From Haliotis rubra (taxonomy: Eukaryota): 64,000 nt of DNA. The stretch spans positions 1,058,684-1,122,683 of the forward strand of contig NW_025766975.1 in NCBI RefSeq assembly GCF_003918875.1. The letters are read 5' to 3'. Under the pieces are notes generated by a model, which worked only from the letters and a program-made list of their open reading frames with translations, did no database searches and was not told the DNA's origin. Position 1 is the first letter of the stretch; the number at the start of each line of letters is the position of its first letter. A program made the translations under genes and the position numbers. Below, piece by piece: positions 4,699-59,768 of this stretch.

Positions 4699-4800
4699 AA
4701 TGCGTTCGCCCGTCACTTCGGAGGCCTGGGTACAACGTCTGAAGCCGAATTGTGATCCAGTTTAATGTTACTAAAAGGTCGTTAAACCATACTCATTCCT
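4699..4800 (+). mobile_element. SINE family A, 5'-truncated copy (ancestral to macro-repeat)
   Basis: gaatgcgttcgcccgtcac...ggtcgttaaaccatactcattcct. Positional orthologues lie at 11171-11312 and 17355-17486. Confidence 0.65.
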
Positions 4801-14300: not shown

Positions 14301-16520
14301 AAAATGGCCAGCAATGTTCATTTAAGAAGGACAGGCATTCAAGAGCGTAAAGGTTCCCCTCAATGTTCTCTTAAGAAGTCAGAAAAAACCTCTCTTCATC
14401 TTCTGTAACACATTCGACATGCCATGAGGAAAATGATACATGGAGAGCTCTAAGTATGCCTCAGCTTGGTGCCTGGTAACATGAAGTTGGTCGTCGATGC
14501 CCATGGAAGCCCCATTTGGCGTTAATGGTGACATTTTCAGCAAAATATTCAAGTTACATACAGTCATTTTACATACACAAAGGCCCATGAAAGCCTGAAT
14601 AGTACAAGATTTTCTTGTGGCTACGGAAATGGTCTTGTCGTTGTTGTTTGCAGAACCGCGTTTATTTTCATTCATAATAGATTGAAATGATTCAGTCGCC
14701 CACCAAGTTAAATTTGCACAAGCTAAATCCAGTATTGTAATCGATTGTGGAAACCTATCCATAAAGCTCTGCAGTTATTATTTCTGTGTACGGAGAGTGG
14801 AATGGATGGCCACTCGTGAAGAACAGATGACGACACTGGTAATTACATTGTACACTAAGGAGACCATAAAGACAGGGCCACCTGATAAAGCCTGATCACA
14901 TCTTCTAATATTCACGCCTTGGCTTCTTTGATGAGTGTTGCTTTAAAGGTTAATGTGACTGTGTTGAAACTCGATGCGTTCTGTAATGCAATGTATGATG
15001 TAGACAGAAGATCTCAAGTGTGAATGAAGAGACAAGAAAGACATCAAAATAGAAAACATGTAATCTATACTACACGTTTTATACAGAGATAGTACATAGA
15101 CATAAAAAACATGCATCTGTGTCTTTGCCCAGGATGGTACTTTGTATAGATCACTTTTTCGCATCTCGTGATCTCAAAACTGGTATCGTCATTATTTCAT
15201 GATAGTAATTCATACACACATGCTAATGATATAGCCGGAATGGTACAATGGACGAGCACTAGGAAGAGACATCCTACCAATATGGGAAGTTATTTATATA
15301 AATGGCCAGGAAAATGAAATATACAGCCATGTTTGAGGGTTTGTAAACATTGAACTATTAAAGTTGTTTTTCGATGGTGATGTATTTGATGAAAGTATCT
15401 AAGTTGTGTTTTACACCTTAAGTTTGCATTTTGATGCTTTCTGTTGCAAAGTAGGATCAAATACCAGTAACTTCTAAATTTATGCATTAATATCTCTTTG
15501 GGAAATCAGAATGATAATGCTAAGCATAATGCAAGTTTATTTGATTATTTCGCGAGACATTATATAGTGGATAACACACAAACAACGTCGCCAGACATAA
15601 AAGGGAGTCAACAAGAAATTTGGAATGCAAGAGCTGTTCAATTGACAGATTGTCAATTTGTGATAATTTCAAATTCCATTTCCATTATTCCTTTTTCAGG
15701 AGTGCATAAACCGTCTTGATAAACATATATTATACTCCATCAAAGAGGCAAGACTATAATACACTGACGTTTGTAGACAAGTCACAAAACATATGTAATA
15801 TTTAACTAATATTTGACATATGATGCAATCGTATCAGTTCACATGTACAACATTTATACAACTTTCGCGCGGAAAATGTCTGTAAGATTGCATTATGTAG
15901 TATTCTCAATTCACAGTACATTATGCTAGCTTCTTTGAAGTTCATGATGTGACAAGCGCCAGGATAATCTTCCCAATGCGAATGGTACCAATAATTGTAC
16001 CAAAGATAACTTAAATACATGCTTGGAAATATCCAAACAACTAATACTGGATAAATGACACTTTTTGACACACGAGGACTACTAATAAATCCGCCCATCA
16101 ACCAAGGAAAGACCATTAAGAGGAAACATATCAAGTGTTCTTAAATTATAAACAAATGAAACTTTACAATGAAATACCACAGGCACAAATATATCAGCAC
16201 TGAAAAGGTTAACAGTCGCCAGTCATGATATAATACAATTGCAAATATCCATTATGAAAGGTAATGATTTTGAAAGTTGAAGGTATAATGTAACGAATAT
16301 CTCTTGGATACAGGTTTTAATCAAAACGATATAGGTATTTACTTTTATATCTTTGTCATATGAACGTCCAGACAAAATGGATGAAACAGCTTCATAGAAA
16401 CTTTCAGTGGGTTGTTAAAGTATGTTTTAGCTATGGGATTCTAGCAATGCCTATTCACTATTATTGTGCAGAGAAGCGTTAGTGAATGTGATTAGGTTTA
16501 TGCCGTTTATGTTTAACTTT

Positions 16521-17981: not shown

Positions 17982-18226
17982 TACCCATGAAGGTCCGGGT
18001 TAGAATATTGATCTTCAGTAACCCATGCTTGTCGTAGGAGGCGACTAACGGGATCGGGTGGTCAGGCTCGCTGACTTGGTTGACACATGTCATCAGGTTC
18101 CCAATTGCGCAGATCGATGCTCATGCTGTTGATCACTGGATTGTCTGGTCCAGACTCGATTATTTACAGACCGCCGCCATCTAGCTGGAATATTGCTGAG
18201 TGAGGCGTAAAGCCAAACTCACTCAT
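17982..18226 (+). mobile_element. SINE family B, young copy-specific insertion with 13-bp TSD
   Basis: Sense-oriented copy (head ...catgaaggtccgggttagaat... to tail ...gcgtaaagccaaactcactcat). It is flanked by perfect direct repeats ataaggagaatcg at 17969-17981 and 18232-18244. It is absent from the orthologous sites in unit A (~5270) and unit B (~11770). Confidence 0.85.
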
Positions 18227-18534
18227 ACACTATAAGGAGAATCGCGGTCTAAAATATGCATTCTCTATGTTTAGGAGTAGGCTAACCATGTAACGTAATA
18301 ATTAAGACGTACTTTCCCCCCTTTACTGACACTATATCAATAACATTGGTTGCTGTATGTATAATTCATTGGGTTGTGTGGCAGTAATTGCTTGGACTGT
18401 TAGAAATGTGTTGTTTATGAAACAGCAGTGTAGGGTACATGAAGTATTGACAGGGAACGGACCTCTACTCCACATTGACTATAACAGTCTTAGCATCATT
18501 GGGTGAACATTCTTTCATCGATGCCTCCTGCTAC

Positions 18535-29000: not shown

Positions 29001-29954
29001 CGGACATAAATCCATCATGGATTAAATAACGGTTCATTTCGGTAAGTGAGTCATTTATAAATGCCATTACCTTTTTGAAACGGACAACAGTTGTTCAAAA
29101 TGCGCTGATTAAGATTGATATCCATGTGAAAGAATCCCGAAATATGGCTTAAATAAATGATGGATGGCGTATCTAAAGATAATGGAGTTTTGAAAGAGTT
29201 GGTATACAAGACAGATGTACATGTTTTCTCAAAAGAGGGGAGGAAGGTAATTCTGAAAACACTTCATTTTATTAGATGTTAGCAAACGAGAGGATCAGTC
29301 TTTCTAAATATGTACATGATACAATGGCTTATGCTTGATGGAATAGGTACATCCAGAACGGGATGCTTGTCGTATTTATCCTTGACAAAGATGAAGCAGT
29401 TGATTCATCAAAGTAGACCAAAGACGGATGTTTGTTTTGTTTCGTTTGGTGATGAAACCATCTCCCGAGGAAAAATGGTCCTGACAGAGAAAGATGGGTG
29501 ATTGTGCTTGTCTATTGGACCTCATGACATAACTGACTCTTCCATCAATTTGGAATTGCATCGTAGTGTCAGATATATGTTTTAATCTTGAAGTGTACTA
29601 TATGAACATCGGTAGAAGTATAACAGACATCCGTGTTGCCTTGCCTTGTGGACATTTGCCCAGAATGACGCAGGTACTTATCAAGGTCCTCTCCAACTCT
29701 GAACGTGTTTATGAGTCTCTATCAACTAATGACGACACCAATTGAGCGTGAAATCAATATCATTTGTTTCAAACAGACAGTCGTTATATGCCTATATTAC
29801 CGATTGAGATGTGTTGTCAAAGTGAATAACCTGAAGGTGTTCCACACAGTGTCAAGTCAATCAGCTAGAGAATGTTCAAGCTCAATGCTGAACGGTGACA
29901 AGCTTTTATTTCACAACCACGCATTAACACAATCGCTGAGAAGGTATTTTCCTA

Positions 29955-30127
29955 GACTGACTGACTAACTGAGTTTAGTTTTACGCCGCTTTTAGCAATA
30001 TTCCAGCAATATCACGGCGGGGGAGACCAGAAATCGGCTTAACACATTGTGCCCAGGTGGGGAATCGAACCCGAGTCTTCGGCGTGACGAGCCAACGCTT
30101 TATCCACTAGGCTACCCCACCGCCCCG
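29955..30127 (-). mobile_element. SINE family A copy with (GACT)n tail, in dup copy 1
   Basis: gactgactgactaactgagtttagttttacgccgcttttagcaatattccagcaatatcacggcggg...ggggaatcgaacccgagtcttcggcgtgacgagccaacgctttatccactaggctaccccaccgccccg. Confidence 0.8.
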
Positions 30128-31254
30128 TATTTTCCTAGAGCTAGCGAGTATTGTTAACAGAGAGGTTTAGCTTCGTTCATTGTGTAGAGAAGTATCGATT
30201 CGAATAAAATGGAACCTTTGTAAGGCGTAGTATTTCTTCCGACGTTAATTAATTTTGACATAAAACATCGCAATCATAGCCCTCGATAGTTACTGTCAAC
30301 ACGAATGCTGAGTCAATCTAATGTCGACCTCAAATTGCCCTAAAAAAGTGATTGACAGAAACTTTCCAGAGTTGTTTTGATTAACTTTCGTGAACTTGCT
30401 GATTGGTTTCTTTCCAACCTTTGCATGTACCTTGCGATCAAATATTGATTGGGAATGTGATGCAGGGCTAAACAGGTTTGTTGAGCTGATAGAATAGCAT
30501 TTAATTAGTTTTTATTGGTAACATGATGCCAATATTATCTAGGAAAAGATTATGATATTTTGTGCTATTCGTTTAATTGAGTACATTATCTGATTCATCA
30601 TTTGAACTCGAAAACCCCCGATATTTTCCAAAAATGGAACTACATGCCGTTATGAATTACTCAATAAGATTTTGAAATAGGGGAGTGGCATATTTCATCA
30701 TTGTTAATGGCACTCAAATAATTACATTTCCATGTACGCTTCATGCTTGTTAGTTTCTACCAACAGGTTGGTGATTTCAAAGGGCGTCGTACAACCTTTG
30801 TTCAAAAGGTGTCTCATGAAGGTTATGATATTAGGGAACTTAGTGAAGCTTTCAAAACGTTTATGGTAGACATGTGTTTTTTTTCCAGATTTGACGCTTC
30901 AGTAACACACTGATGTCTGATGCAATTGCTTGTGACATAATGTTGTTGCTCCATGTCATCAGCGGGCCTCACCCTTCACGTGCACGTTACTGTATAACCA
31001 TCAATAAGTCAGGGGCACTGAGTACATATATAGTATGAAGTATATTTCGATAATACTATTGACTTTCACATTATACTCTATCGAAAGGGGCCTGCACTTT
31101 GCCCAGTACTCTTTCTCTTTGCAATTTGCTCAACAGACTTGTGTTTCTTATGTATGTCAACAACAGCAACAACAAAAACCGGATGGGCAAAAAATCTAGG
31201 TCACTGCCAATGCAACATGTCGGTAACACACGTGGTTATCTTCGGAGGGAGCTG

Positions 31255-32502: not shown

Positions 32503-32750
32503 AAGTGAGTGAGTGAGTGAGTTTAGTTTTACGCCGCACTCAGCAGTATTCCAGCTATATGACGGCGCTTTGTAAATAATCGAGTCTGAACCAGACAATT
32601 CAGTGATCAACAGCATGAGCATCCATCTGCGCAATTGGGAATCGATAACATGTGTCAACCAAGTCAGTGAGCCTGACACCCGATCCCGTTAGTCGCCTCT
32701 TACGACAAGCATGGGTTACTGAAGGCTCATTCTAACCCGGACCCTCACGG
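32503..32750 (-). mobile_element. SINE family B with 12-bp TSD (gttttcaYtaat)
   Basis: Full B consensus. Flanking direct repeats gttttcattaat (32491-32502) and gttttcactaat (32751-32762). Confidence 0.85.
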
Positions 32751-36081: not shown

Positions 36082-38286
36082 GGTTAGGTCTACTAATGCC
36101 TACAGGGAATAATGCCTACAGGGAATAATAGCTACAACGTTTGCAGTGACAGCGATACGCTTACCTGCACACAAGTAGATTGTTCCACTTAGTGTGCACT
36201 ATTGCCTACAAAGGGATTAGGGGAGGCCAGCAAGGAGAGTAAAGAGTAAGATCAAGAGTATTAAATCGTTAGCTAGCTTATGTTTTGATAATTCCATACG
36301 CATTTAGTTCTCACCCGAGAAGGAAATTGAAGAGTAAAGTAATTAATAGAGAGAGATTATTAAAGGGAGAAGGAAATGTATTGCTTTAAAATTCTTGTGA
36401 TACAAATCTTCATTGCAAATCATGGCAAATCCCAAGAAAGTCGAATACTTCACATCACAGAAAGGAGGACAGCAGGTACTCTTGGAGGGGATACCGCTAC
36501 AGACTCAACAACAGGCGACAGACGTGTGTACACTGGAAGTGTGTTCAAGGTGGCTGCTTTGGCAAGTGTACGACAGTCGGAATCAGACCCCACACAACCA
36601 CCCACAAGAAGACCAGGTAGCCCTGAAGATTGCCAGTTCCCTGAGGCAGCGGGTACAGACTGAGACGACGCCAGTTCAGGTGATCTACGATGAGGAGATT
36701 TCCCGACTTGACCGAGGTGAAGCAGCAACAGTCAAGTCGTTCCATTCTATGAAGAGTGGACTCTACAAGCAGAGACGGAAGATGATGCCGCCACTTCCCC
36801 AGACGCTCAGCGAGGTGAATCTACCCGACTTATTCAAGGAGACTACAGATGGACTGCCCTTCCTCTGCATTGATGACGGTGATGATGACAAGATTCTCTG
36901 CTTCGCCAAAAGTGACCGCCTGACCCTCCTGCAAGAAGTGGACACCCTCTACATGGACGGCACCTTCTACTCCTGTCCTCCTCTCTGGGATCAGCTGTAC
37001 GTCATCCATGGCCTAGTCGGAGGGAAGATGACCCAGTTGGTCTTCTGTCTACTGCCGAATCGTCAACGCCGCACCTATGAACGCCTGCTACGTCTCCTGA
37101 ACGACAAGATCCAGCAGACAACGGGATCGCCCCTTCAGCCTGATGTCATCCAGACGGATTTCGAAATCGCTGCCATCAACGCTGTTGAGACCGTCTTCCC
37201 CAACTGCGACGTCCGTGGATGCTATTTCCACTACAGCCAGGCTCTCTGGAGGAAAGTACAGAACCTCGGCTTCAGCGAAGCCTACCAGCAGGATCCTGAG
37301 GTCCACAGATGGGTCCGACGAGCAGCAGCACTCCCCTCCTCCCAGTGGCCATGGTACAAAATGCCTGGATAGAGGTCATGGACGACGCCCCTGCCATTGG
37401 ACAGAAGGATGAGTTCCAGGACTACATCACCAGCACCTGGGTAGACGACCATGCACGGTTCCGAGCCGGACTATGGAATCACCACGACACCAGCGGCCCA
37501 AGGACGAACAATCATCTCGAGGGTTGGCATTCGCATCTCAACAAGACCGTCCAGAGAGCCCACCCGAACATTTTCGCTCTTGTGAAGGTTCTGCAGAAGC
37601 TGGAGAAAGCGGAGAGAAATAAGCTGGTGCAGATGGCTCATGGCGCCCGTCCCCCACCCTGCAAGAGGACGTACACAGAAATTGACCAGAGACTCACTCG
37701 TCTGAAGGCCCAGCTGACATCTGGTATCAAGGCACCCCTGGAATTCCTGACTGCTGCAGGATATTTGATCAAGCTAGTTTGAAAACCAAATGACTATGTT
37801 GATGAATGTGTGAAACTGTGTGTATACATGTAAATTACTTTTGGTTACCACAATGACTTTATTAATGAATGTGGTAGTTGACTGTGTGAAAGATGTATAT
37901 ATGTATATATAATCATGAATCAAATTAAGTTTTAATTACATTTTAATCCAAATAAATGATTATGTTTATTTATGTAAATTTATTTATCTCAAAACAAACT
38001 ACTATGTGAAAGATATGAATAAAGTTTAAGAAAATTAAGAAAAATATGACAACAATGTGAAAGATATGTATATGAATGTACATATGTATATGAATGACCA
38101 AATAAAATGTCTCTCAACATAGAAAGTTACTGTTTTCTATATACTGTAGGCATTAGTGCACTTTGAAATAGGACCATGCCACTTTATTGAAAGGTTGAAG
38201 GCAGGTGCAATTAGCAGCACTGGTGCGTAAAGTTGTTTATTTAACACTGTAGGCATTATTCACTGTAGGCATTAGTAGACTCCACC
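36082..38286 (+). mobile_element. Mutator-like (MULE) DNA transposon, 2205 bp, with TIRs and 8-bp TSD
   Basis: Left end ggttaggtctactaatgcctacagggaataatgcctacagggaata. The reverse complement of the right end is ggtggagtctactaatgcctacagtgaataatgcctacagtg (42-bp TIR with an internal 17-bp subrepeat). TSD attgagcg at 36074-36081 and 38287-38294. The empty site caccaattgagcgtgaaatc is intact at 29738-29757 in the paralogous copy. Confidence 0.85.
36413..37782 (+). pseudogene. MULE transposase (frameshifted; ORFs 36413-37372 and 37309-37782)
   Basis: DGTFYSCPPLWDQLYVIHG...CLLPNRQRRTYERLL...IQTDFEIAAINAVETVFPNCDVRGCYFHYSQALWRKVQ... and, downstream, ...WNHHDTSGPRTNNHLEGWHSHLNK... are diagnostic MULE/Mutator transposase motifs. 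The reading frame shifts by 1 nt within 37300-37370 (the ctcccctcctccc tract). The N-terminus (KVEYFTSQKGGQQVLLEG...C..W) is weakly FLYWCH-like. Confidence 0.8.
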
Positions 38287-40770: not shown

Positions 40771-41040
40771 CCCAATGGCCCTTTCTCTCTCTTCAGCTGT
40801 TAATCGTGGCGTATTTCTCGTACTTGTGTATCATATCATGTATTCTAGGTTCTCTTCATACCCTATAGAATCATTCTACATTTGAAATGATTGCAAATAT
40901 TGTTTGAATATTGCTGCGTTTTGGCGATTGCTATTGCTATGTGTAAACAGAAAATGGAAAAATGTTAACAAAGATAATGTTAGATGTTCCTAAACATTTG
41001 TTTATTATATCAAAGACACGTTTTACTTGTTTTCACTAAT

Positions 41041-41273
41041 AAGTGAGTGAGTGAGTTTAGTTTTACGCCGCACTCAGCAGTATTACAGCTATATGACGGC
41101 GGTCTGTAAATAATCGAGTCTGGACCAGACAATCCAGTCATCAACAGCATGAGCATCCATCTGCGCAATTGGGAACCGATGACATGTGTCAACCAAATCA
41201 GCGAGTCTGACACCCGATCCCGTTAGTCGCCTCTTACGACAAGCATGGGTTACTGAAGGTTCATTCCAACCCG
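41041..41273 (-). mobile_element. SINE family B (paralogue of 32503-32750, with a 10-bp deletion at the head)
   Basis: Same TSD gttttcactaat on both sides. The head ends ccaacccgg|ttttcactaat instead of ccggaccctcacgg. Confidence 0.85.
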
Positions 41274-42106: not shown

Positions 42107-43407
42107 CAGTACAACCAGAAATTATTGAGAATTTAAAGATTGTAATTTTTTATATTATTTTCACTCATTACTCACGTATTAAATGTGAATATTAGCAGAA
42201 CATAACTCCAGATTCAAAGACAGGTGAACAGTTAGTATTTTGTCAAGTCACCATGGGCAGCAATGCAGGCTTCAATGCGGCGGGGCATACTACTGATCAA
42301 AGAAGTTAGAAAGTCGTGGTCCATGCTGTCCCAATATCGGACCACCTCTTCTTTCAATTCAGCAATATTTGTCAGATTTTTCTTATTGACACTTTCCTTC
42401 ATAAGTCCCCAAACATTTTCTATTTGATTTAGGTCAGGGCTATAGCTTGGCCAATCTTATAATGTCATATTTTGGGTCCGAAACCAGGCCTGTGAATGCT
42501 TTGAACGATGTTTTGGGTCGTTGTCCTGCTGGAAAATCCAAACATTTCCATAGAACACGTGAGCAGATGGAAATAAATGTCCCTCGAGAATATTTGTGTA
42601 CCGCTCACTGTTCATATTCCCTTCAAATACACAGAGGGGCGTTGCCCCTAACACAGATATGCCACACCACACGTTAAATTTCGGACTGTACTTTGGGCGC
42701 TGATACAAAGGTCTTTCAGTTTGTTTGGTCCAGAATTTCAGTGTATTAGGAAACAGCCACACAGAACTTTCATCTGAGAAAATCACATTGTCCCAGTTAA
42801 AATTTCTATGCTGTAAGCACCAGTTCAACCTTCGCTCCTTTTGTTCAGGTTTCATGATCGGTGATGGAATTCCTCGACTTTTCTACCAACCCATTGCATG
42901 CAGCTCAGTTCTTATTGTCTCCTTACAGACAGCCACAGTTCCTCTATCAATCATATCCAGCCTTAAGTTTTCTAAACGCCTTCGTTTGTTTTTAGAAACA
43001 AGAATACCAAGCCGCCTCCTGTCACCGACAGTCAATTTTCTGGGCCTACCTGCGCCTCCCTGGTGCTCAATGCCATATCCATTTGCAATATTTTCAAAAC
43101 ACGATAAACAGTGGACAAAGGGATGCCTGTTCTACTTGAAATCACTTTAGCTGATCTGATGTCCTTGTTATAATACTCTAAAATCAACTTCCTCTTCTCT
43201 AAATCATCCATACTGAGGATCACTGAAAATGTCGTCTGCTAGCAAGTAAACAAAGGGGGATAACTCTTCACAAACTAATGAAAAAGGGTTAACGGAGTTG
43301 TCTCTCTTGAATGAAACCAAACACTTGATAGCTGGTCAAGGTTGTTTATACTAGAAATCCAATTATTAAACATATTCCTAAAATTCTCAATAATTTCTGG
43401 TCATACT
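42107..43407 (-). mobile_element. Tc1-like DNA transposon with TIRs and TA target site
   Basis: Left end TA|cagtacaaccagaaattattgagaattt. The right end is aaattctcaataatttctggtcatacta|TA, whose reverse complement is tagtatgaccagaaattattgagaattt. It encodes a full-length Tc1 transposase on the minus strand. Confidence 0.85.
42232..43223 (-). pseudogene. Tc1-like transposase, about 330 aa, with at least 2 frameshifts
   Basis: N-terminus MILSMDDLEKRKLILEYYNKDIRSAKVISSRTGIPLSTVYRVLK (HTH). Middle QKERRLNWCLQHRNFNWDNVIFSDESSVWLFPN...NVWCGIS...FQQDNDPKHRSK (DDE). C-terminus in a third frame, ...PSYSPDLNQIENVWGLMKESV...SMPRRIEACIAAHGDLTKY*. The span of 992 bp is not a multiple of 3. Confidence 0.85.
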
Positions 43408-50382: not shown

Positions 50383-51590
50383 AGTTATAATGAATAATAA
50401 TAATAATAATAAATGCATATTTATAATGCGCCCCTTCCACACCCTAAGGCATGCTCAAAGCGCTACAGAATATTTACACTGGAGTATTTACAGATGAAGT
50501 TATACATAATATACTGAGAAAAGGTGGGTTTTAAGTCTGGACTTAAAAATGTCAATTGTGGCAGAGCTTTTAAGGGCACATGGGAGAGAGTTCCAAAGCA
50601 CAGGCGCGGAGTAAGAGAATGATCGGTGTCCGAAGGATTTCAGTTTGTAGGATGGGATGACCAGTCGGTTTTGTGTGTTTGAGCGCAAGTTGCTTGCGGA
50701 GACATACGGATGTAGGAGTTCAGACAAGTAGGAGGGAGCCAAACCATGGAGGCACTTGTATGTCAGACAGAGGATCTTAAAGTCAATTCTGGCCCTAACT
50801 GGTAGCCAATGCAGTTCTTTCAACACTGGTGTTATATGGGAACGTTTAGAAGTCTTGCTGATGATGCGGGCGGAAGTATTTTGGATCTTCTGAAGCTTAT
50901 CAAGGAGTTTAGAACTGAGGCCTGAAAGGATGCTGTTACAGTAATCAAGCCTAGATGTAACAAGAGCTCGAACAAGGGCTTGAGTTGCAGCAGTTGTCAG
51001 GTATTGCCGAATGATACCAATGGATCTTAGGTGAAAGTAGCAGGTCCTGCTCAGACGGTTAACATGAGCATCCAGAGTCAAGGAAGAGTCGATGTGGACA
51101 CCCAAGTCCTTAACCACATCAGAGAATCTGACGTCAGAGTCTGCGACTGTAAGGGTGTCGGTTTTGACCTTGCTGAGTTGTTGCTTTGTACCAATGAGAA
51201 CTGCTTCTGTTTTTGTGTCATTAAGTTTAAGCATGTTTCCTGTCATCCAGCACTTGATGTCCTGCGTACATTCAGCGATGCACTGAAGAGACGTAAATAG
51301 ATCTGACAGATGAAATGCTTTCAGGAGCTGGGTGTCATCAGCGTAGGCATGATGAGAAACTGTGTGGTCTGTAGTAATCCTTCCGACATATCCGGTATAC
51401 AACACAAACAGGACTGGACCAAGGACTGATCCCTGTGGCACCCCACATGTGATTACAGTGCCTTTTGATCTCTCAGTGCCAACAACAACAGATTGCTGTC
51501 GGTCAGACAGATACGACGTCACCCATTGAAGGGCATGACCTTCAAGTCCGTACTGTTGTGTGAGCCTGGACATGGTATATAAATACATGT
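50383..51590 (-). mobile_element. 5'-truncated non-LTR retrotransposon (CR1/L2-like LINE) 3' part with (ATT)n tail
   Basis: RT C-terminal ORF followed by a 100-bp 3'UTR ending in (ATT)6. On the + strand this reads (aat)6 at 50385-50402. Confidence 0.85.
50500..51588 (-). CDS. Reverse transcriptase fragment (RT domains 4-7 plus C-terminal region), 362 aa ORF
   Basis: ...GVPQGSVLGPVLFVLYTG...HAYADDTQL...LQKIQNTSARII...ITPVLKELHWLPVRARIDFKILCLTYKCLHGLAPSYLSELL...RSFSYSAPVLWNSLP...FKSRLKTHLF. This is a typical CR1/L2-clade LINE ORF2 3' end. It has no upstream RT or EN region, so it is truncated. Confidence 0.85.
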   Translation of the reverse strand: MYLYTMSRLTQQYGLEGHALQWVTSYLSDRQQSVVVGTERSKGTVITCGVPQGSVLGPVLFVLYTGYVGRITTDHTVSHHAYADDTQLLKAFHLSDLFTSLQCIAECTQDIKCWMTGNMLKLNDTKTEAVLIGTKQQLSKVKTDTLTVADSDVRFSDVVKDLGVHIDSSLTLDAHVNRLSRTCYFHLRSIGIIRQYLTTAATQALVRALVTSRLDYCNSILSGLSSKLLDKLQKIQNTSARIISKTSKRSHITPVLKELHWLPVRARIDFKILCLTYKCLHGLAPSYLSELLHPYVSASNLRSNTQNRLVIPSYKLKSFGHRSFSYSAPVLWNSLPCALKSSATIDIFKSRLKTHLFSVYYV

Positions 51591-53284
51591 TATCATTATA
51601 TTTACTTCAAAAACTTTGCACGTTCTTTTAACTCTAGGAAAACATACTTTGCAAGATAGTTAGTAATGTACTTATTATCAGATTTACAAAGCAAATATAT
51701 TTTTGTAAAGACGGCGAAGTACAATAATACATGGGTAGAGTACTGCTTCTGAGGTCTGAAAGTCTTCAAATATGGCTCGGGAAGTTGATCGTGGGCTGTA
51801 AGGAAATATAGTGTGAGAAACTCTTCAGTTTAAATAATTCAAATTGCCATTGATAATCTCGAGTGAACTGATTTTCGTAAGTGCCACATTTTGTCAGTGA
51901 TAGCTAAATAGGCAGTGTTACAGACGCTGTCGATGTTCTGCTGTTTAGGCTGTGTTCCTTGGAAGTTGTCATCCACGGGTTAACTGAGACCTTCAAATGG
52001 ACTAGTGTTGATCTACAATGGATATTTCGTTAGAAACTCTTTTCCGTCATCAATAATTTTATTCGAGAATTATTGATATTCTACCTTTCTCTCTCGTCAT
52101 AATGGGATGCCATAACTTATCTGCAATGCTCAAAACAGCATAAACTCACCTTTACTGTTCTAAATATACTTAGGAATTTGTTTAAACCAGTTAATGTGTC
52201 CAAAGACCATCTATACATATTTTGTATGATAAACAATCAATGTAATTAGGAATATATATCTTAGATGGCAGTCAGAAATATTCTATTTGCCAAAACGGTT
52301 TATTTGACTCATGAGATATGTACCCAAAGGGCACAACCATCTTCTCATATGACAGATACTACCCTTAGGCATATTAGATTAGGAAGGCATTGCGTGGGCA
52401 TGCTTATGTACTAAACTGTCATAGCATTCATGTCGGTGAAGCAGTAAATGACCATTGCGACTATTCAATGAAGGTTGTACAGAAACAAATAGTAATTCTT
52501 CCTGAACATTCGTGGTCACAAGAATATAATACATATAACACATTTAGGGATAATTATTCATATGTTTTGTTTCTGGAATAATACTGGGTGAAGTATGTTT
52601 CTTGGATTCCAGCAGATGTTGTAATTCTTGACAATGTAAACTTGAGATAAAATCTGCTGGTCAAACGTTTTTATAAATCTGCCGTAGTGTCTTTTTCCAA
52701 TTGCAGCATTCTTACTTGTCCCGTTATATCCCAACAGCGCGACGATAATGACTTTACAAGTTTGGTGAGTTATGCTCACTCAATTTAATGTCTCCAAAGA
52801 GTAACGGAAAAAGCAGGAATGTTATTGATTACATCAGTTGCAAAACCCAAGTTCTCATCGCCTCACAATGGTAGTCGCATTTGGCGAGTCTCTTTGGATT
52901 AAACACGTTAATCAGGTGATATCGCATCCAGATAAATTTTATGGTTTCTTGCACGAGAAACACCCCTATCACACATTCCCTATCCTGGATACAGATCATA
53001 CATTCCAGTTTCATCTGTATGGCTCTACCGCAGTTATGCCCCCTCTGCTAACACTGAAAAAAAATTAAACACAAAAATTCAGTTTTTTACAGACATCCTG
53101 GCCTGCGTTGTATCAAAATATAGGGTAACCTGCTGATTTAGTCTTTCACTCGTTACGCTGAAGACCCTACTTCAATTTGCCAAATGGTACAGTGTTTCCT
53201 GGCATTATATAAAGCTACTATTACTGAAGAAATAATGTGAACACTTTATAGGATCACACTGTGACCACAAGGTGTTACTGATGT

Positions 53285-53478
53285 ACTCTTCTACCGGCTG
53301 ATTGAGTGAATGCTTGTTGTTTAACCCTGCACTCAACAGTATTTCAGCTGTTTGGTGGCGGTCTGTAATTAATCGAGTCTGGACCAGACAATCCACTGAT
53401 CAACAGCATGAGCATCGACCTACGCAGTTGGGATACGATGACATGTGTGAACCAAGTCAGCGAGCTTGACCACCCGAT
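53285..53478 (-). mobile_element. SINE family B, truncated in the head
   Basis: ccctgcactcaacagtatttcagctgtttggtggcggtctgtaattaatcgagtctggaccagacaatccactgatcaacagcatgagcatcgacc...tgaccacccgatcatgatgtc. Confidence 0.8.
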
Positions 53479-53481
53479 CAT

Positions 53482-53686
53482 GATGTCAATCATGGAATGT
53501 CTGGTCCCGACTCAATTATTTACAGACCGCCGTCATAAAGCTGTAATATTGCGGCGTCAAAGTATACTCATGCCAATAATGGTTGTCACCCCCTTCCCCA
53601 CCCCAACCCCATCCACACACACCTCACACACCCTCTCCAATTAAACAATTGAAAGGGGTGACAACCATTATTGGCAAGAGTATACA
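53482..53686. repeat. Inverted SINE-B 3' fragment (53482-53572, sense) plus 33-bp-stem hairpin with 57-nt C-rich loop (53561-53686)
   Basis: gaatgtctggtcccgactcaattatttacagaccgccgtcataaagctgtaatattgcggcgtcaaagtatactcatgcc is an inverted partial copy of the adjacent SINE. It is followed by agtatactcatgccaataatggttgtcaccccctt ... loop ccccaccccaaccccatccacacacacctcacacaccctctcc ... aaaggggtgacaaccattattggcaagagtatac. Confidence 0.75.
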
Positions 53687-54376
53687 AACAAACACAACAA
53701 AACACAAACGAATCGCTTCACCGCAAACAATCTGCAGAATAATCAGGGTAATCATATAATATATCAGATACTGTCTCGTCATTACGAAATAGACTATTTG
53801 ATTATGTCCTTAAGCATTAGAAATCGAACTATTAAAAGAAAAAATAATGATTAAAATCGTCACTACAGACGTTTGACAAAAAAGTAGTCTTGAAATGTCA
53901 CAGGGGATCAGTAAAGCAATAAAATACTAATCACATTTCTACCCTGATGGCACGGTAAAAGCATTAGCCACATCTGTTTTGGGAGAATATTAAGATATGG
54001 TAGATCATTCATGTCATAATTAATTTAAGGTCTTCAAAGTGGTTTGTAAAAAGGTGTTTATACGTGGTGAGAGGTTTCGAGGTGATTTGTCCTTTTCGAA
54101 GTGTAAAAGGGTTTATTGAGATTGATGAGACAAGTGAGGCCTGTGAAATATTAGACGCTATGCAGTGAAGCAATCCTGTACCAGCACTGTCTCGGGATAC
54201 AGATGGTAGTTGCCTTATGTTCCGATGCTGACCGAATGTGCTGCGTGGATGCTGCCGCTGTCCAAGAAATCAACTATTCCATACGTCGTACCAAGGGTGA
54301 GAAGTTGTTATGGTTGGGGATCTGCGAATATCAAATATCAAACACACAATGCCATTTTGAAAAGTGGTCAAATGTA

Positions 54377-54693
54377 ACATATGTTATATTTGGGATTACA
54401 CTTTCTTAGTAAAGTACAGATTCTAGTACTTTTGTTGGGTTGAGTCCAAACAAACGGCCGTAGGAGCCGTGCCAATTAACACTTATCAGAGGGGTACACA
54501 AAGTCCGCAGTCTAGACTACCATTTTTGTGGAAGCCGCGGTGGCTGAGCGGTCTAGGCGTCTGACTTTGTGTGCTGGCGATTAGGTGCCTGAATCTGAGG
54601 GTGCGGGTTCGAATCCCGGATGGGACTCAACCCAACAAAAGTACTAGAATCTGTACTTTACTAAGAAAGTGTAATCCCAAATATAACATATGT
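54377..54693. mobile_element. Foldback or MITE-like element: perfect 71-bp terminal inverted repeats around a 175-bp tRNA-Ser-like core
   Basis: Arms at 54377-54447 and 54623-54693 are exact reverse complements (acatatgttatatttgggattacactttcttagtaaagtacagattctagtacttttgttgggttgagtcc). The core has a Ser-type D-arm (gtggctgagcggtctaggcg) and a T-arm (gggttcgaatccc) but no clean anticodon arm. A 13-bp direct repeat aatatcaaatatc lies at 54327-54339 and 54694-54706. Confidence 0.7.
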
Positions 54694-57600
54694 AATATCA
54701 AATATCGTTCCCGAAAGATATGCTCAAAAACATATCCTATCCCAAAACATATCCTGTTTCTGCTCAAGAAAAATATTCAGGTATCAAGCTGTATTGCGAT
54801 AAGCAACGCATGAACTCCTTACCCTTGAACTAAGCCTTTTTTAAATGTCGAAACAAACCTAAAATATATTGCAACAGACATTTGGTTCTTTTATTTCGAG
54901 CATTGTATTTCCTGTTATAATATCTTCCTTGGTGATAAGAATTTTCGACCTGTATGGTACTTGAGGTTGTTTCGAAAGTATCACCACCACAGTCTCTCAT
55001 CAACAAATTCAGCTACCAATTTGAAAAATGATCTGCTGAAACAACAGATGCTGGCTTGTGTCATCATTCAAAATAACGGCTTCGTATGAGCGATTCAGAT
55101 GACTGTATAAAACATTGAGCTGTAAATGATTTTCCTGTGTTATTTAAACAGGGGAATAAAAGACCTCAGGGTACAGCAAGTTGTCAATTGCGTTTGAAAT
55201 TGTAATATGGACAGTTGTTACGAATGTCATTTCATCTGAGTCTGTATTTAGCATTGTTATATCTGCACTAGGGGCAAAACAATGGTGTCGAATGTTCTGG
55301 ATTGTCTTGCAATAAAATGGATTTTGATATTCGGGATTTTCGAGGGTAAGAAACTCTGTTGCATACCAGTACATGTACCTTCTCAGTCTTAAAACATTTT
55401 TCTGACCCGAGTGCCTCCTTGGTCGCGAGAATGGAACGCGTGCCATGAGAGCGGAAGGCCGTTAATTTTACCTCAGGCATTGTCATACTAAGAGAACTTG
55501 TTTTTACAAGTGTGGAGTAATGGGATGAAGCAATGTCTGGTGGGTACACTGTCTCTAACTCTAGGCATCATTACAGTGTATCTGAGCGGGGTTTTCATGT
55601 TGAACCTGTGTCTCGGCGGGCTGATGCCATGAACCTGGTATTATTCGAGGATGTAGAAGCAGCAAGCAGACACCCCTCACCTCCTCCATACAAACGTGCA
55701 ATAATCGTGAACGTCTTTTTTCTCAGACATGCACTGCTTGGTCAAATTAGTTGACAAGGTGTTCCTTGATGGGGTTGGTGTGACGTCGAGTTTCACAGGT
55801 CATACGCAAGGTATCGCTGTGGGCAAACACTACAAAACCCGCAGTAATCCAATCCAAATACACACGCACTAACGCACACGCACACACATATTGCTGTAAG
55901 TGCAGTCATCACCAAGCGCTCCTAATACATTATAGATTTCAAGAACTACAATTGCTTACAACTCACTGAAAAGCTTCTTTAGAGCGGAACTGACAGTATG
56001 ATTAACCTTGTCATGGTATGAATGTACAAACACGTCGGGACGTCTGGAACATTATGATATACTTTGCATTACATGTCACTTTGTATTCACGATACAGTCC
56101 TTCAATAACAAATGCAATACATATGAGACAACTTGTGATGTTCGTATTATCAGCAGTAGACTCTCCGCAGACATACGTTTGGAATCGGACACAACGTTTA
56201 TTACATTGTCTGGCAGTGGATGTGGTGGTAAGGGTTATCTTGCAACCACAGAAACTCCACCAACAGCTTAGACGGGGAATTATCTTCAGTGAGATGCATC
56301 ACATGAAGTCTATTAACAATGTATATTTGATAAAATATTTCTTTTTACGATATTGGTTTCGTAATGAAATGTCGGTAGGCTTTAAATACAATACCACATT
56401 TCTATTATTTTATTGTCAATATGGCTTTTTATTGATGTGTGATATAATTTTCTTTGATGACATATATCAGTCGAGTGAATATTTTCTATAACTGACAGAC
56501 ATGCATCCTTTTGAAAACTGCAATGAGATATTCATTGCAATAACACATCGTTGGTCTTCGTTGTGCACATGATAATATAGACTTTTCTAACTTTTTAAAA
56601 ACAATCATTTGGGAATAAACTCAGACATCGAGGATTTGGTTTATGAAGCTTGCAAGATATACATATTCCATATGCTCCATGGCCTCTTTACAGGACTTCT
56701 GTCTGCTGAGCATGTGTTATTGTCAGTATAGATCCTGAATGGCTCCCTTAGGTCTATAAGTATCAGTTTATTCTTGTGTATTCTTATAACATTGCATGAA
56801 ATAGAAACACGATTTATTCAGAAATACTTCCAGAAAGTATGTCAATCATTTTAAGGAACGCCACTGGGACTATAAAATTATGAATTATGAAGTTCGGAGT
56901 GAACTGTCTAACTGATATGAGCTAGTAGCCAGAAGTTTAATTTGAAAACACTCTAAGTCCAGATAGGTAATATCCTTTGAACATGAAGTAGTGTAAACTA
57001 CACGCATTGTAGGGACTTTTGTTGGTATATTGATAAACGTTCGTAGTTTTGTGCAGTCAATAGAAAAACGGATTAATTTATAAACATATATGCATAATAT
57101 TATCACCATCATCATAAGCATCATCAATGCTTGCCCTATTAAAACTAAACAGATACCCACGGGAATGAATCGTTATGTAATTGAACAAAATACAAGTCAT
57201 AACACACTGGATTTATCAGATTTATCCATAAATATCTTCCATCACAATGTCGTTCTGTCTATAAATAGCTATGTAACATCACAATTCCTCAACATTTAAA
57301 GATGAGATTTATTCTTTCATTTTGCAAGCCTGTCATAGAAGATTAAAAGGAAAAAAGTGGTGTGAAAAACACTCACTCACTCACTCACTCATATCTCAAA
57401 GGTTAAGTCCTGCTGCTTCCACCTGGGATATCAGTACTACAATCTTCTACAAATATCTCTTAGTAGCAACACCTAACACGTCCTATGTCTAACACCCTCA
57501 TCTACAAATACGGTAAGCAGCTGTCAGCACTAAGTAGTACGTCTTGTCTCTTTTATCGCAGCTACGTCTGTAACATCTATCGGAGTAAACCTAAAGTAAT

Positions 57601-58108
57601 CATCATTGGATTTGATATTGAGATGTCTGGAATCTGGATCCCCGGAATGAGCATTTCATTGGCTGCAGTGTGTTTCCACCACAAAGGTTTATCGTGGTTG
57701 GTAGGTAATCTCCAACAATTTCTGATCTTTGTAAATGAGATCTGTCTCAACTGTCTTAAACACATAATATTGGTGTAGTGACTGTTCTAACGTGGCAAGT
57801 CATTCCTATCTTTGTGGTATAATTACGCTTCAACAGATAGCATCAAAAACCTTGATTGGGTTTTACTTATTCATGTTGATAACTGTGGCGGAAAGGATGA
57901 GAAACGTATGATGTAAAGACCCTTAGTTTTCCACGTATAGCAGGAACATATAAGTAAACTATGCTTATAATGAACACGCTTATGACGATTTCACGGACAT
58001 AACAAACTGTTTGTGTATGCCCACCACCAACTGTATATGGGCATTATGGCTGCGCTTATAACGAAATGTATTGTACTGATCCCTTTGAGTTCTTTATAAC
58101 CGTAGTTA

Positions 58109-58500
58109 ATAATAATAATAATGTGTCCATTTATATAGCGCCAAACTCCACACTAGGTATGCTCATAGCGCTAACAATCAAGGCCATTATTACCCCGGAT
58201 AACCCAAGCTGCCTGTTAGGCGCTAGAAGGTTATAGTCATATGACTTTTTTCCACCGGGTACCCATTTTCCTGCTGGGTGAACAGAGACAATTTTGAACA
58301 AACTCACTTGCCTAAGGTGAGACCACATGTGTCACATGTGCTTCGTTGTGGGGCAGGACTCAAGTCCTAGAAACTCTCAGGAGTCAAGCTGCCAAACACG
58401 GTCACCCATCCAAGGACTCTACGAGCTCGACGCTGCTTAACTTCACCGATTTGTGACCTGAGCTTTAAGCACAGGACCACGCGCCACCACACTAGTTGCC
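58109..58500 (-). mobile_element. Candidate 5S-rRNA-derived SINE (SINE3-like) with a LINE-derived 3' module and (ATT)5 tail
   Basis: Minus strand reads ...cggtgaagttaagcagcgtcgagctcgtagagtccttggatgggtgaccg..., which matches the 5S rRNA boxA/IE/boxC region GGAAGCTAAGCAGGGTCGGGCCTGGTTAGTACTTGGATGGGAGACCG. The 3' terminal ~65 bp plus (ATT)n are highly similar to the 3' end of the LINE at 50383-50455. Confidence 0.5.
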
Positions 58501-58617
58501 TGTACATATCGGCAAATAGTCCTTATACATTATACCGGTTCTTTATTAATTCCTTTTAATGTTGGTTGGTGTTACACTCTACACAGAGCAACATTCTAGC
58601 AATATGGCGGCGGTCTA

Positions 58618-59768
58618 TACTGAACCACAAAAGAAACGTCGTTTTTCAAAACCAAATGCAAGATTTTGTTCTTACAAAATGGTGTTTTTATTATGATTCT
58701 ATCGTTTTGTTAACATGTTTTTCAATCCAAATTGACAGTTATTACCAACATCAGTGTGTTTTCTTATGAAAACGCATATCGACCAAACGCACATAAAAAT
58801 GCAGACGTAGTAAAAGGATCCGTATGACATTCATGAAAATGAAAATGCACGTGCATATCGTGACAACCCTACCAATGAAAGCGAGTCCCAAACTCGCCTG
58901 AAATCATTTTTGTTTTGACACAATCGCCATGGCACGACTTACGAGAGATCAGAGGAACCAAGTCTAGGGACGATTGCCAGTTGGCCAGACTGCACGGAGG
59001 GTAGCCAATCATTTTAATCTCCATGATAGGACAATCTACCGACTGCAGGAGTGGTATCAGGCTACTAACAGCATCCAAGACCGCCCAGGCAGAGGGCGAC
59101 CTTCAGTAACATCACAACGTCAAGACCGACAGATTGTGCGCCACCATCTGCAGGATCGCTTCCCCAGAGCGACGGGAACAGCACGCCAGACCATTGCGAC
59201 TCACAACAGACCCATCAGTGCCGATACAGTGCGTCGACGTTTGCGCGGGAGAAACCTCTGCTCTCACAGTCCATATTGTAGTCCTGTCCTAAACCGCTCA
59301 TCACCACCACAACCGACTGCAATGGGCAACTCAGCATCGAAATTGCCGTTTTCGACAATGGAGAACTGTGCCTTTTTCTCATGAAAGCCGATATTGTGTT
59401 TCGACAGTCGATGGCAGAGTGAGAGTATGGTGAAGGCGTGGGGAACTGTTTTCCAATGAGTGTATTGTTGAAAGAGACTCGCTGGGTGTTCCAAGCATCA
59501 TGGTGTGGGGTGCAATCGGTCTGAACATTATGCGCAACGCTTTCATCGATGCCCATAGAGGCCACACACAATACTGACTTTGGGGTATCTTAATGGTACC
59601 ATTCTTGGTAATTTGGTTTGTGTGAACTCTAAATGTGATTCCCGAAAATGTGTTAACCATAAGTTTCAAGTTTGAACTCAATCCTCCGTTTTGATTGTTA
59701 ATTAGAGTGAATTAAAGTGTGTGCTTTAAGAAACCGCTATCGGTGCGACATTTTTTTGTGGTTCAGTA
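58618..59768 (+). mobile_element. Tc1-like element, internally deleted pseudo-copy, with 27-bp TIRs and TA TSD
   Basis: Left TA|tactgaaccacaaaagaaacgtcg; right cgacatttttttgtggttcagta|TA. The ORF from 58929 reads MARLTRDQRNQV*..RLQEWYQATNSIQDRPGRGRPSVTSQRQDRQIVRHHLQDRF...TARQ...ISADTVRRRLR, then in another frame W.TVPFSHESRYCVSTVDGRVRVWRRRGE...IMVWGAIG. It contains stops and frameshifts and the DDE C-terminus is missing. Confidence 0.7.

Follow-up and report, generated by a model that had tools for sequence, protein, structure and literature searches.

A candidate composite SINE of abalone with a 5S-type promoter block, a CORE-like body and an L2-like LINE tail

Does a short element of the abalone Haliotis rubra that begins like a 5S rRNA gene and ends like a LINE belong to a SINE family, or did its parts come to lie in a row by chance? 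Here, we analyzed the window, i.e., the whole stretch of 64,000 nt that contains this element, in which a sequence-only reading had placed a LINE fragment and the short element on the minus strand, at 50.4-51.6 kb and 58.1-58.5 kb, respectively; both were found there. Sequence comparisons make it probable that abalone (Haliotis) have a family of composite SINEs, with a 5S promoter followed by a CORE-like domain and an L2 tail, and that the element at 58.1-58.5 kb is a copy of it. They also support the core of the earlier reading, namely a short non-autonomous element with a putative 5S-derived pol III head and the tail of a CR1/L2-group LINE.

A 3' end common to the short element and a LINE fragment

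The LINE fragment (50393-51590, minus strand) is a 5'-truncated copy of an L2-like LINE of the CR1/L2 group. Its open reading frame (50500-51588, minus strand, 362 aa) matches no more of RVT_1 than the C-terminal half, profile positions 96-194, no continuation of the reverse transcriptase was found upstream of it, and it is followed by an 87-nt 3' UTR and an (ATT)6 microsatellite (50393-50410). Over 1174 nt, the fragment shares 87% identity with a copy at locus L002 of Haliotis asinina. Its protein has homologues at 76-85% from the same species, which carry no clade names, and no exact match to it is on record. The fragment possesses the L2-type 3' tail, a stem-loop followed by a short tandem repeat, here (ATT)n, and its 3' module resembles the MIR/L2 tail (non-curated consensus; 5/2000 shuffles). 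It is from this tail, rather than from a phylogeny, that we class the fragment as L2-like.

The short element (58108-58500, minus strand), with its 5' end estimated at 58491-58500 and its 3' end at the last ATT unit, has a 3' module of ~50 nt and the (ATT)n tail in common with this LINE. The common module starts at TAGCGC (50465 and 58173) and extends to the repeat, thereby spanning 50413-50465 in the LINE and 58123-58173 in the SINE (both minus strand). In a blastn search against the whole window, the SINE matched itself once and, apart from that, the LINE tail alone (75% over 72 nt, E 1e-5), and the remainder of the element had no match to the LINE. With the microsatellite removed, local alignment of the two tails scored 37, whereas shuffled sequences averaged 13.8 (sd 2.4; z 9.8) and 0/2000 reached that score. 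The common module and the dissimilarity of the rest, both proposed from sequence alone, are thus borne out, while the six ATT units implied for the SINE end are five (58108-58122). The SINE module also aligns to the LINE tails of H. asinina loci L001 and L002 and of metagenome locus L003. Its identity to the nearest LINE copies seen is 73-79%, with 78.6% over 70 nt for the L001 copy, and it resembles the MIR/L2 tail in a comparison made partly on a non-curated consensus. RNAalifold finds a 13-pair hairpin common to SINE and LINE tails, in which one pair of the SINE has undergone a compensatory change (U-A to A-U).

The nearby LINE had been proposed as the likely autonomous partner of the short element. 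It is, however, a dead, 5'-truncated copy of 1.2 kb and not an autonomous partner, and the SINE tail is no less similar to a LINE copy from H. asinina. Probably it is a member of the partner lineage that lies ~6.5 kb from the SINE; this proximity is incidental.

In its general features the element conforms to a SINE. It is short (~385 bp, against a customary limit of ~600 bp) and non-coding, with longest open reading frames of 65 and 46 aa that have no homologues, and it ends in a simple repeat preceded by a 3' end common to a LINE. A search of its concatenated six-frame translation against 5.8 billion proteins, meant to catch spurious open reading frames from other SINE copies, gave no match at E<=10. 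The 5' edge coincides with a step in GC content from ~0.3 to ~0.6 at ~58500-58505. No convincing target-site duplication was found around the ends of the element. One 9-mer, ATAAAGAAC, occurs at 58089-58097 and 58538-58546 but is offset from both ends and therefore probably a chance repeat. Elements mobilized by L2/CR1 often have no clear target-site duplications.

The 5S-like block in the head of the element

The block at 58399-58444 (minus strand; GAAGTTAAGCAGCGTCGAGCTCGTAGAGTCCTTGGATGGGTGACCG) corresponds to the internal control region of 5S rRNA genes, i.e., the type 1 pol III promoter with box A, intermediate element (IE) and box C. Its 46 nt align without gaps to 5S positions 48-93: a canonical invertebrate 5S gene that was recovered from metagenomes agrees at 39/46 of them, and human 5S at 36/46 (z 12.2, 0/1000 shuffles). 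For the latter match, the binomial probability is about 2e-11 per position and about 2.5e-6 over the window as a whole. In the window copy, boxes A and C are intact and have the exact 5S spacing of 20 nt, and box C is identical to the oyster 5S primer TTGGATGGGTGACCGCCTG (PMC4778033). At least 120 metagenome stretches contain the two boxes at exactly this spacing. Most are 5S genes (88-119 bits in Rfam) and others are 5S-headed repeats, with no relative of the SINE body among them. Neither the 5S-block pattern nor its combination with the CORE motif had a match in viral and prokaryotic genome contigs.

The head does not carry a full-length 5S sequence or structure: Rfam 5S (RF00001) gave no match at its gathering cut-off of 38 bits, and none at E<=10 when 551 nt were searched. 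With 136 nt as query, 5S_rRNA was the sole family reported among 4227, at 12.8 bits (E 2.8). This score is low because only the 46-nt internal control region is 5S-like. Identity is 85% inside the block, whereas the ~47 nt upstream and the downstream sequence show no more than chance similarity to 49 canonical 5S genes; for the upstream part aligned to 5S positions 1-47, 384/500 shuffles reach the score. Of the 5S-derived head proposed earlier, the quoted strings are present in the block and the promoter region stands, but not a whole 5S. The cmsearch suggested as a check formally fails, being too blunt an instrument for a 5S relative of which the promoter alone is left. Full length is not strictly required for SINE3 either, since what remains in published SINE3 and Ajax elements is likewise chiefly the promoter. 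Conservation restricted to the promoter has been reported likewise for HaSE3 and Ajax (PMC3272025, PMC10886601).

With a 5S-homologous box A, IE and box C, as in SINE3, the head appears to be an internal pol III promoter of 5S type. A tRNA-type promoter was rejected, since box B is absent from the head and neither Rfam nor ARAGORN reported a tRNA match. The sharply uneven decay of the 5S similarity would fit long selection on promoter function in the SINE lineage rather than a neutral 5S pseudogene. It also bears on the proposal that the element is a real SINE whose 5S block is a dead relic, with transcription by read-through or from an unrecognized promoter in the GC-rich 5' leader (58445-58500, minus strand). 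The leader has indeed been traced to neither 5S nor tRNA, and the discussion in PMC3272025 considers that type 1 promoters probably need the context upstream of them and perform poorly once retroposed. A dead block, however, would hardly have kept both boxes perfect and correctly spaced in the window copy while the surrounding 5S disappeared, and a tRNA-type box B is missing; we therefore regard a relic as improbable, if the least improbable of the alternatives. The leader has a weak likeness to a 5S-like element in metagenome locus L074 (25/2000 shuffles), which was chosen post hoc and not used.

A CORE-like body and a second copy in Haliotis rufescens

The body of the element, on which the sequence-only reading was silent, contains a central domain (GTCTCACCTTAGGCAAGTGAGTT...TCTCTGTTCACCCAGCAGGAAAATGGG; 58261-58323, minus strand) similar to the MIR core. 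The 36-nt oligo published for the MIR core (PMC6344866) agrees with this domain at 18/23 positions, a match reached by 9/1000 shuffles (p about 0.009). Against the 72-nt MIR core region of a non-curated consensus, it scored 39 (z 5.8, 0/2000 shuffles), and the alignment of SINE and MIR (partly non-curated consensus) is colinear from core to tail. CORE-SINEs form a superfamily with a central CORE domain of ~45-65 nt that is about 65-70% identical between members. The similarity found here is moderate, about 60-65% with gaps and to one consensus only. Of the CORE, Deu and Nin-DC superfamilies, the comparison covered MIR alone, and it is in this sense that the body appears to be CORE-like.

The 5S block and the body (58186-58445, minus strand) recur together in H. 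rufescens, at ~15501-15758 (minus strand) of locus L125. This copy, found without selection by the 5S pattern, matches at 76.9% over 130 nt in blastn (E 3e-22) and covers SINE positions 56-315 (~260 nt) in nhmmer (E 9e-22). It is degenerate but keeps the 5S block at 33/46 identities to canonical 5S, and the head-body junction GACCGT.TTG.CAGCTTGACTCC is kept along with the body. At 41/46 columns of the block, the 5S base is present in at least one of the two copies. Since its flanks do not align with those of the window element, L125 is not a segmental duplicate of the window locus. Two non-orthologous copies are thus dispersed in 251 kb of Haliotis DNA; the seven further loci (~146 kb: L124, L126-L130 and the rest of L125) contained no additional one. 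As the L125 copy has neither the 5' leader nor the L2-type tail, the full head-body-tail arrangement is documented once. Conservation of block and junction in an independent copy, as anticipated if genomic copies share the head, argues for a family and against a chance fusion.

In a chance row, the decayed remains of a 5S pseudogene would adjoin unrelated sequence and a LINE insertion so strongly 5'-truncated that ~65 bp are left of it. 5' truncation commonly leaves very short LINE copies, the copy at L125 is without the L2 tail and a clear target-site duplication is missing, all of which such a row would accommodate. It would not account for the recurrence of 5S block and body at an unrelated locus in another species, for the sharply uneven decay of the 5S, or for modules that all lie on one strand in the canonical order of head, body and tail and add up to a typical SINE length. 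A CORE-like body followed by an L2-type tail is moreover a known SINE architecture in molluscs (PMC4758252), and we judge a chance origin of the arrangement to be unlikely.

Still less probable is a one-off chimera of the Buzdin type, in which the reverse transcriptase of a LINE changed template once, from a CORE-SINE RNA to 5S rRNA, and left a non-propagating retrocopy. A fresh chimera would have a complete, evenly diverged 5S, whereas only positions 48-93 are recognizable here, and a second independent copy exists. Template switching is nevertheless the accepted origin of chimeras between 5S and tRNA-SINEs (PMC3272025, PMC4824008), and the SINE family therefore probably began in this way. 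A solo LTR or fragment of a 5S-promoter LTR element (a Cassandra/Ajax-like TRIM) is very unlikely, for although the LTRs of Ajax likewise carry only box A, IE and box C of 5S (PMC10886601), the window contains no second LTR-like copy, no TG...CA termini were noted, and a LINE hairpin with a microsatellite as 3' end is a hallmark of LINE-mediated retroposition.

Proposed mobilization and relationship to known SINEs

Mobilization of the composite SINE could proceed as follows. TFIIIA, and after it TFIIIC/TFIIIB, would assemble on the 46-nt internal control region. Pol III would initiate about 50 nt upstream of box A (predicted start ~58491, ~47 nt upstream) and transcribe through the element, whose sense strand has no T4 terminator. 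TTTT occurs five times on the antisense strand and not at all on the sense strand, which is not significant alone because 15% of random windows are likewise without it. In the transcript, the last ~50 nt would fold as the same hairpin as in the 3' UTR of the L2-like LINE, followed by the same (ATT)n. A LINE reverse transcriptase, which we infer to come from an L2 subfamily, might recognize hairpin and repeat ('stringent' recognition) and, through target-primed reverse transcription of the SINE RNA, insert copies at new sites. The eel pair UnaL2/UnaSINE1 is the model for template selection by L2 reverse transcriptases, and stringent recognition has reportedly been demonstrated experimentally for it. 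As in the abalone pair, SINE and LINE of the eel have a conserved 3' stem-loop and terminal short repeats in common; the repeat is TGTAA in the eel and ATT in abalone, and the abalone pair is known from sequence alone.

The known SINE3/5S SINEs, e.g., zebrafish SINE3, AmnSINE1, Tribolium SINE3-1_TC and the lepidopteran HaSE3 and PxSE4/5, have a type 1 pol III promoter head from 5S, as proposed here, and a body and tail from another SINE/LINE lineage. In HaSE3, as in the abalone SINE, similarity to 5S is strongest in boxes A, IE and C and declines in the upstream direction; the partner of HaSE3 is an RTE element, whereas that of the abalone SINE would be L2-like. The abalone SINE differs from SINE3 in that only 46 nt are recognizably 5S. 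The view that 5S SINEs are known mainly from vertebrates is outdated, as they have been described in Tribolium and many Lepidoptera (PMC3272025, PMC8010984, PMC10886601). SINE3 hosts in the searched literature are reptiles, insects, fish and mammals (PMC10946416), whereas abalone are vetigastropod molluscs. Ajax and Cassandra keep the same promoter segment but have paired LTRs and 5-bp target-site duplications in place of the LINE hairpin and microsatellite end.

Body and tail resemble those of CORE-SINEs with L2 tails (MIR, AFC and, in molluscs, Aca_CORE_1, Cgi_CORE and BivaCORE-SINEs), in which a CORE-like segment is likewise followed by the tail AGCGCT...GAGC...GCGCTATATAAAT. Such SINEs are established in gastropods and bivalves (PMC4758252, PMC4824008, PMC11481361), with the L2 partnership described in Aplysia and Crassostrea (PMC4758252, PMC11481361). 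Their heads are tRNA-derived, whereas the abalone SINE has a 5S promoter block and no tRNA boxes.

We know of no named SINE class that combines 5S, CORE and L2 modules. Our tentative suggestion is that the abalone SINE, with a 46-nt head on a CORE-like body and an L2 tail, represents the first family with a 5S promoter to be documented among the SINEs of Mollusca and also of Lophotrochozoa. If true, a bare 5S control region can take the place of the tRNA promoter in CORE-SINE lineages without ending their spread across Haliotis species, and the host range of 5S-promoter SINEs would extend to molluscs, as far as the searched literature shows. The general principles of SINE biology are unchanged by this finding; the element is of an ordinary kind, apparently not yet described for molluscs. 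It would be a clean example of modular assembly, with a 5S promoter joined to a CORE-like domain of deep conservation and to the recognition hairpin of an L2 element, and a minimal natural type 1 promoter for testing what a 5S control region requires to remain active after retroposition. Rfam-based screens for 5S miss such heads because the promoter alone survives, and mollusc repeat annotation could misclassify the SINEs that bear them. Two 5S-headed SINE families in metagenome contigs reached 42-78 bits against Rfam 5S, compared with 12.8 in the abalone SINE.

The 5S control region within the short element

The non-coding element at 58108 to ~58500 (minus strand, ~385 bp) is best supported as a composite SINE. 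It ends in (ATT)5, one unit fewer than the string in the sequence-only reading had implied. GC content rises from ~0.3 to ~0.6 near 58500-58505, at the estimated 5' boundary of the SINE, and the start predicted for a 5S-type promoter, ~47 nt upstream of GAAG, lies at ~58491. A tRNA-type promoter was searched for in the SINE and is absent, and a protein search with its six-frame translation returned no match. No convincing target-site duplication flanks it, the sole 9-mer shared by the flanks being offset from both ends. The sense strand contains no TTTT and the antisense strand five, although this motif is also missing from 15% of random 367-nt windows.

Within the head, 46 nt at 58399-58444 (minus strand), comprising box A, intermediate element and box C, align without gaps to 5S positions 48-93. 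The match is 36/46 with human 5S (z 12.2, 0/1000 shuffles), for which the binomial probability is ~2e-11 per position and ~2.5e-6 over both strands of the window, and 39/46 with the commonest canonical 5S gene recovered from metagenomes. The two-box pattern GAAGTTAAGCA-N20-TTGGATGGGTGACCG, with the spacer fixed at 20 nt, retrieved at least 120 metagenome stretches, mostly canonical 5S genes. Complete canonical genes made up 57 of 132 pattern occurrences, most of those cut by contig ends were likewise canonical-like, and the eleven canonical-type genes checked scored 88-119 bits in Rfam. Among the 20 spacer positions, which the pattern leaves free, 13 match the canonical gene (P ~1e-3). Box C has the same sequence as published 5S primers for oyster (PMC4778033) and copepods (PMC4664967), which places the block in the invertebrate 5S type, molluscs included (GGGTGACC, not the vertebrate GGGAGACC).

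The Rfam 5S model gave no match at its gathering score, nor at E<=10 with 551 nt searched. On 136 nt, 5S_rRNA alone among 4227 families was reported, at 12.8 bits (E 2.8, cut-off 38); the sequence-only reading had proposed a 5S-derived head to be checked against this model, and by its own standard the sub-threshold score counts against a 5S origin. The low score is explained by retention of the 5S internal control region only. Beyond the block, 49 distinct canonical 5S genes show no more than chance similarity (shuffles reaching the score: 384/500 upstream, 455/500 downstream), and the head as a whole is thus no copy of 5S but the 5S internal control region inside other sequence. The alignments favour a 5S origin for 58399-58444 and not for the remainder of the head.

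CORE-like body and shared 3' module

At 58261-58323 the SINE body is similar to the CORE domain of MIR/CORE-SINEs, both in comparison with a 72-nt MIR core region (score 39, z 5.8, 0/2000 shuffles) and with a 36-nt MIR core oligo from the literature (18/23 aligned bases, 9/1000 shuffles; PMC6344866). SINE and MIR align colinearly across core and tail. Assignment to the CORE superfamily is provisional, the comparison having been made with MIR sequences only. Aplysia, Crepidula and oysters have CORE SINEs with L2-type tails and L2 partners, all tRNA-headed (PMC4758252, PMC4824008, PMC11481361); the abalone SINE is like these in its L2-type tail, whereas its head is 5S-type.

In blastn against the window, the short element matched no further copy of itself and only the tail of the L2-like LINE fragment at 50393-~51590 (minus strand; 75% over 72 nt, E 1e-5). 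With the microsatellite excluded, the two still align locally at a score of 37, where dinucleotide shuffles average 13.8 (sd 2.4; 0/2000 reach 37), so that the 3' module proposed to be common to both elements is real. The similarity sets in at TAGCGC and extends to the repeat, and the same ~50 nt can be aligned in the tails of LINE relatives from H. asinina loci L001 and L002 and from metagenome contig L003. RNAalifold predicted a two-part hairpin of 13 pairs common to all five tail sequences, with one pair A-U in the SINE and U-A in the LINEs; this is suggestive of structural conservation, short of proof. Similarity to the L2-derived MIR tail is also seen in the LINE tail (5/2000 shuffles).

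The LINE fragment consists of a 362-aa ORF (50500-51588), an 87-nt 3' UTR and (ATT)6. Its Pfam RVT_1 match is restricted to the C-terminal half (profile positions 96-194 of 205) and no reverse-transcriptase continuation was found upstream of the ORF; the copy thus lacks its 5' part and is dead. The suggestion that this neighbour is the autonomous partner of the SINE fails accordingly, the fragment being neither autonomous nor meaningfully linked. Its nearest named relatives at the protein level come from Haliotis asinina (76-85% identity), and locus L002 of that species carries a copy 87% identical over 1174 nt. Together with the matches of a MULE/FLYWCH transposase ORF elsewhere in the window, these relatives place the window in an abalone (Haliotis) genome. 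Between the SINE tail and the LINE copies compared, identity is 73-79%, too low to assign the SINE to one exact partner subfamily.

Second copy, mechanism and alternative explanations

Nine 20-kb Haliotis loci (187 kb in total) were retrieved via transposable element proteins. One of them, H. rufescens locus L125, contains a second SINE copy at ~15501-15758 (minus strand), detected with blastn (76.9% over 130 nt, E 3e-22) and nhmmer (SINE positions 56-315, E 9e-22). Its flanks are unrelated to those of the window copy, and it is therefore an independent insertion. The copy starts with the 5S block, so genomic copies do share the head, as the sequence-only reading required. Also retained are the junction GACCGT.TTG.CAGCTTGACTCC, the GGGGTAATAA motif and most of the body, in which 25 nt are deleted; similarity ends immediately ahead of the L2-type module. 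With the canonical gene the block agrees at 33/46, here without pattern selection. At 41/46 columns the 5S base is present in one copy or both, which suggests an ancestor nearer to 5S than either. Two copies in 251 kb have little bearing on copy number. Directly upstream lies another repeat that recurs within L125 (~160 bp; 15759-15911 and 5572-5732, 82% identical); its first occurrence abuts the 5' end of the SINE copy and may have truncated it.

The homologies and the second copy are observed directly, and from sequence we infer all functional steps of the following model. The 5S control region would drive TFIIIA-dependent pol III transcription of an RNA bearing the CORE-like domain and ending in the L2-type hairpin and (ATT)n. 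A LINE reverse transcriptase would recognise this 3' end and prime on the hairpin and repeat. Such stringent recognition is established for UnaL2/UnaSINE1. It is possible that the 5S block is instead a dead relic. Chance juxtaposition of 5S-like, body and LINE-tail sequences, or a one-off template-switch chimera, could each place these parts side by side, but the second copy and the very unequal decay of the 5S sequence argue against both. Against a 5S-promoter LTR element stand the LINE-type 3' end and the absence of a paired copy.

Known 5S-headed elements and other repeats

For the composite SINE, precedents exist. 5S-derived SINEs form a recognised class: fish, amniotes, bats and springhare have them, as do the invertebrates Tribolium and Lepidoptera (PMC3272025, PMC8010984, PMC10886601). 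The hosts named in a 2024 review are reptiles, insects, fish and mammals (PMC10946416). Conservation is likewise concentrated in the promoter in the lepidopteran HaSE3 (PMC3272025), and nemertean Ajax LTRs carry, as does the abalone head, only the three promoter motifs of 5S (PMC10886601). The mollusc SINE surveys consulted describe only tRNA- or LINE-derived heads (PMC4758252, PMC4824008, PMC11481361), and judged against these the abalone SINE is possibly the first 5S-headed SINE from molluscs.

Pattern scans for the 5S block, with or without the CORE motif, found nothing in viral and prokaryotic genome contigs. Metagenome contigs of WGS set JAAUYM (L015 at 4700-5080, L058, L059, L063; L008, L009, L113) contain two 5S-headed SINE-like families from a eukaryote, with many copies at contig ends. 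Family A (~330 nt; Rfam 5S 66-78 bits) starts at AAGCCAACGGCGG... and ends in an (AAAC)n tail, the score of Family B is 42 bits, and both have the central block GTATCCAGATCTGAAAGAGGTGA. These families suggest that 5S-headed SINEs are more widespread than the literature implies. A non-canonical 5S-like element on L074 (~750-1000), without an Rfam call at gathering score, weakly resembles the abalone SINE leader in its 5' part (25/2000 shuffles; chosen post hoc). Canonical eukaryotic 5S genes share short contigs with U5 snRNA genes (L033, L064) and with three tRNA genes (L043).

The window also contains a tRNA-derived SINE (29953-30130, minus strand). Its head is tRNA-like (Rfam tRNA, 32 bits at 30050-30121; ARAGORN silent) and is followed by a short body and an (AGTC)n tail; the perfect 12-bp direct repeat CTAGGAAAATAC flanking the element is likely its target-site duplication. 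A nearly identical tail is found in a ~200-bp repeat (630-811, 1375-1609, 17983-18235, 32506-32712, 41039-41258; sense-strand end ...GCGGCGTAAAACTAAACTCA(CTCA)n), which is very abundant in the window and several compared Haliotis loci (84-97% identical) and is probably the dominant Haliotis SINE, with a different LINE partner. Tc1/mariner-type transposase remnants lie at 42457-42855 (minus strand) and 58974-59384 (plus strand, with HTH domains), the latter starting ~470 bp from the 5' end of the 5S-headed SINE. Two adjacent MULE transposase ORFs (36413-37782, plus strand; 319 and 157 aa) occupy a GC-rich (0.48) stretch. Their homologues carry MULE and FLYWCH domains, with best matches in H. 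cracherodii, H. rufescens, H. rubra and H. asinina (45-78%) and others beyond Haliotis in Gigantopelta, Nucella, rotifers and a horsehair worm.
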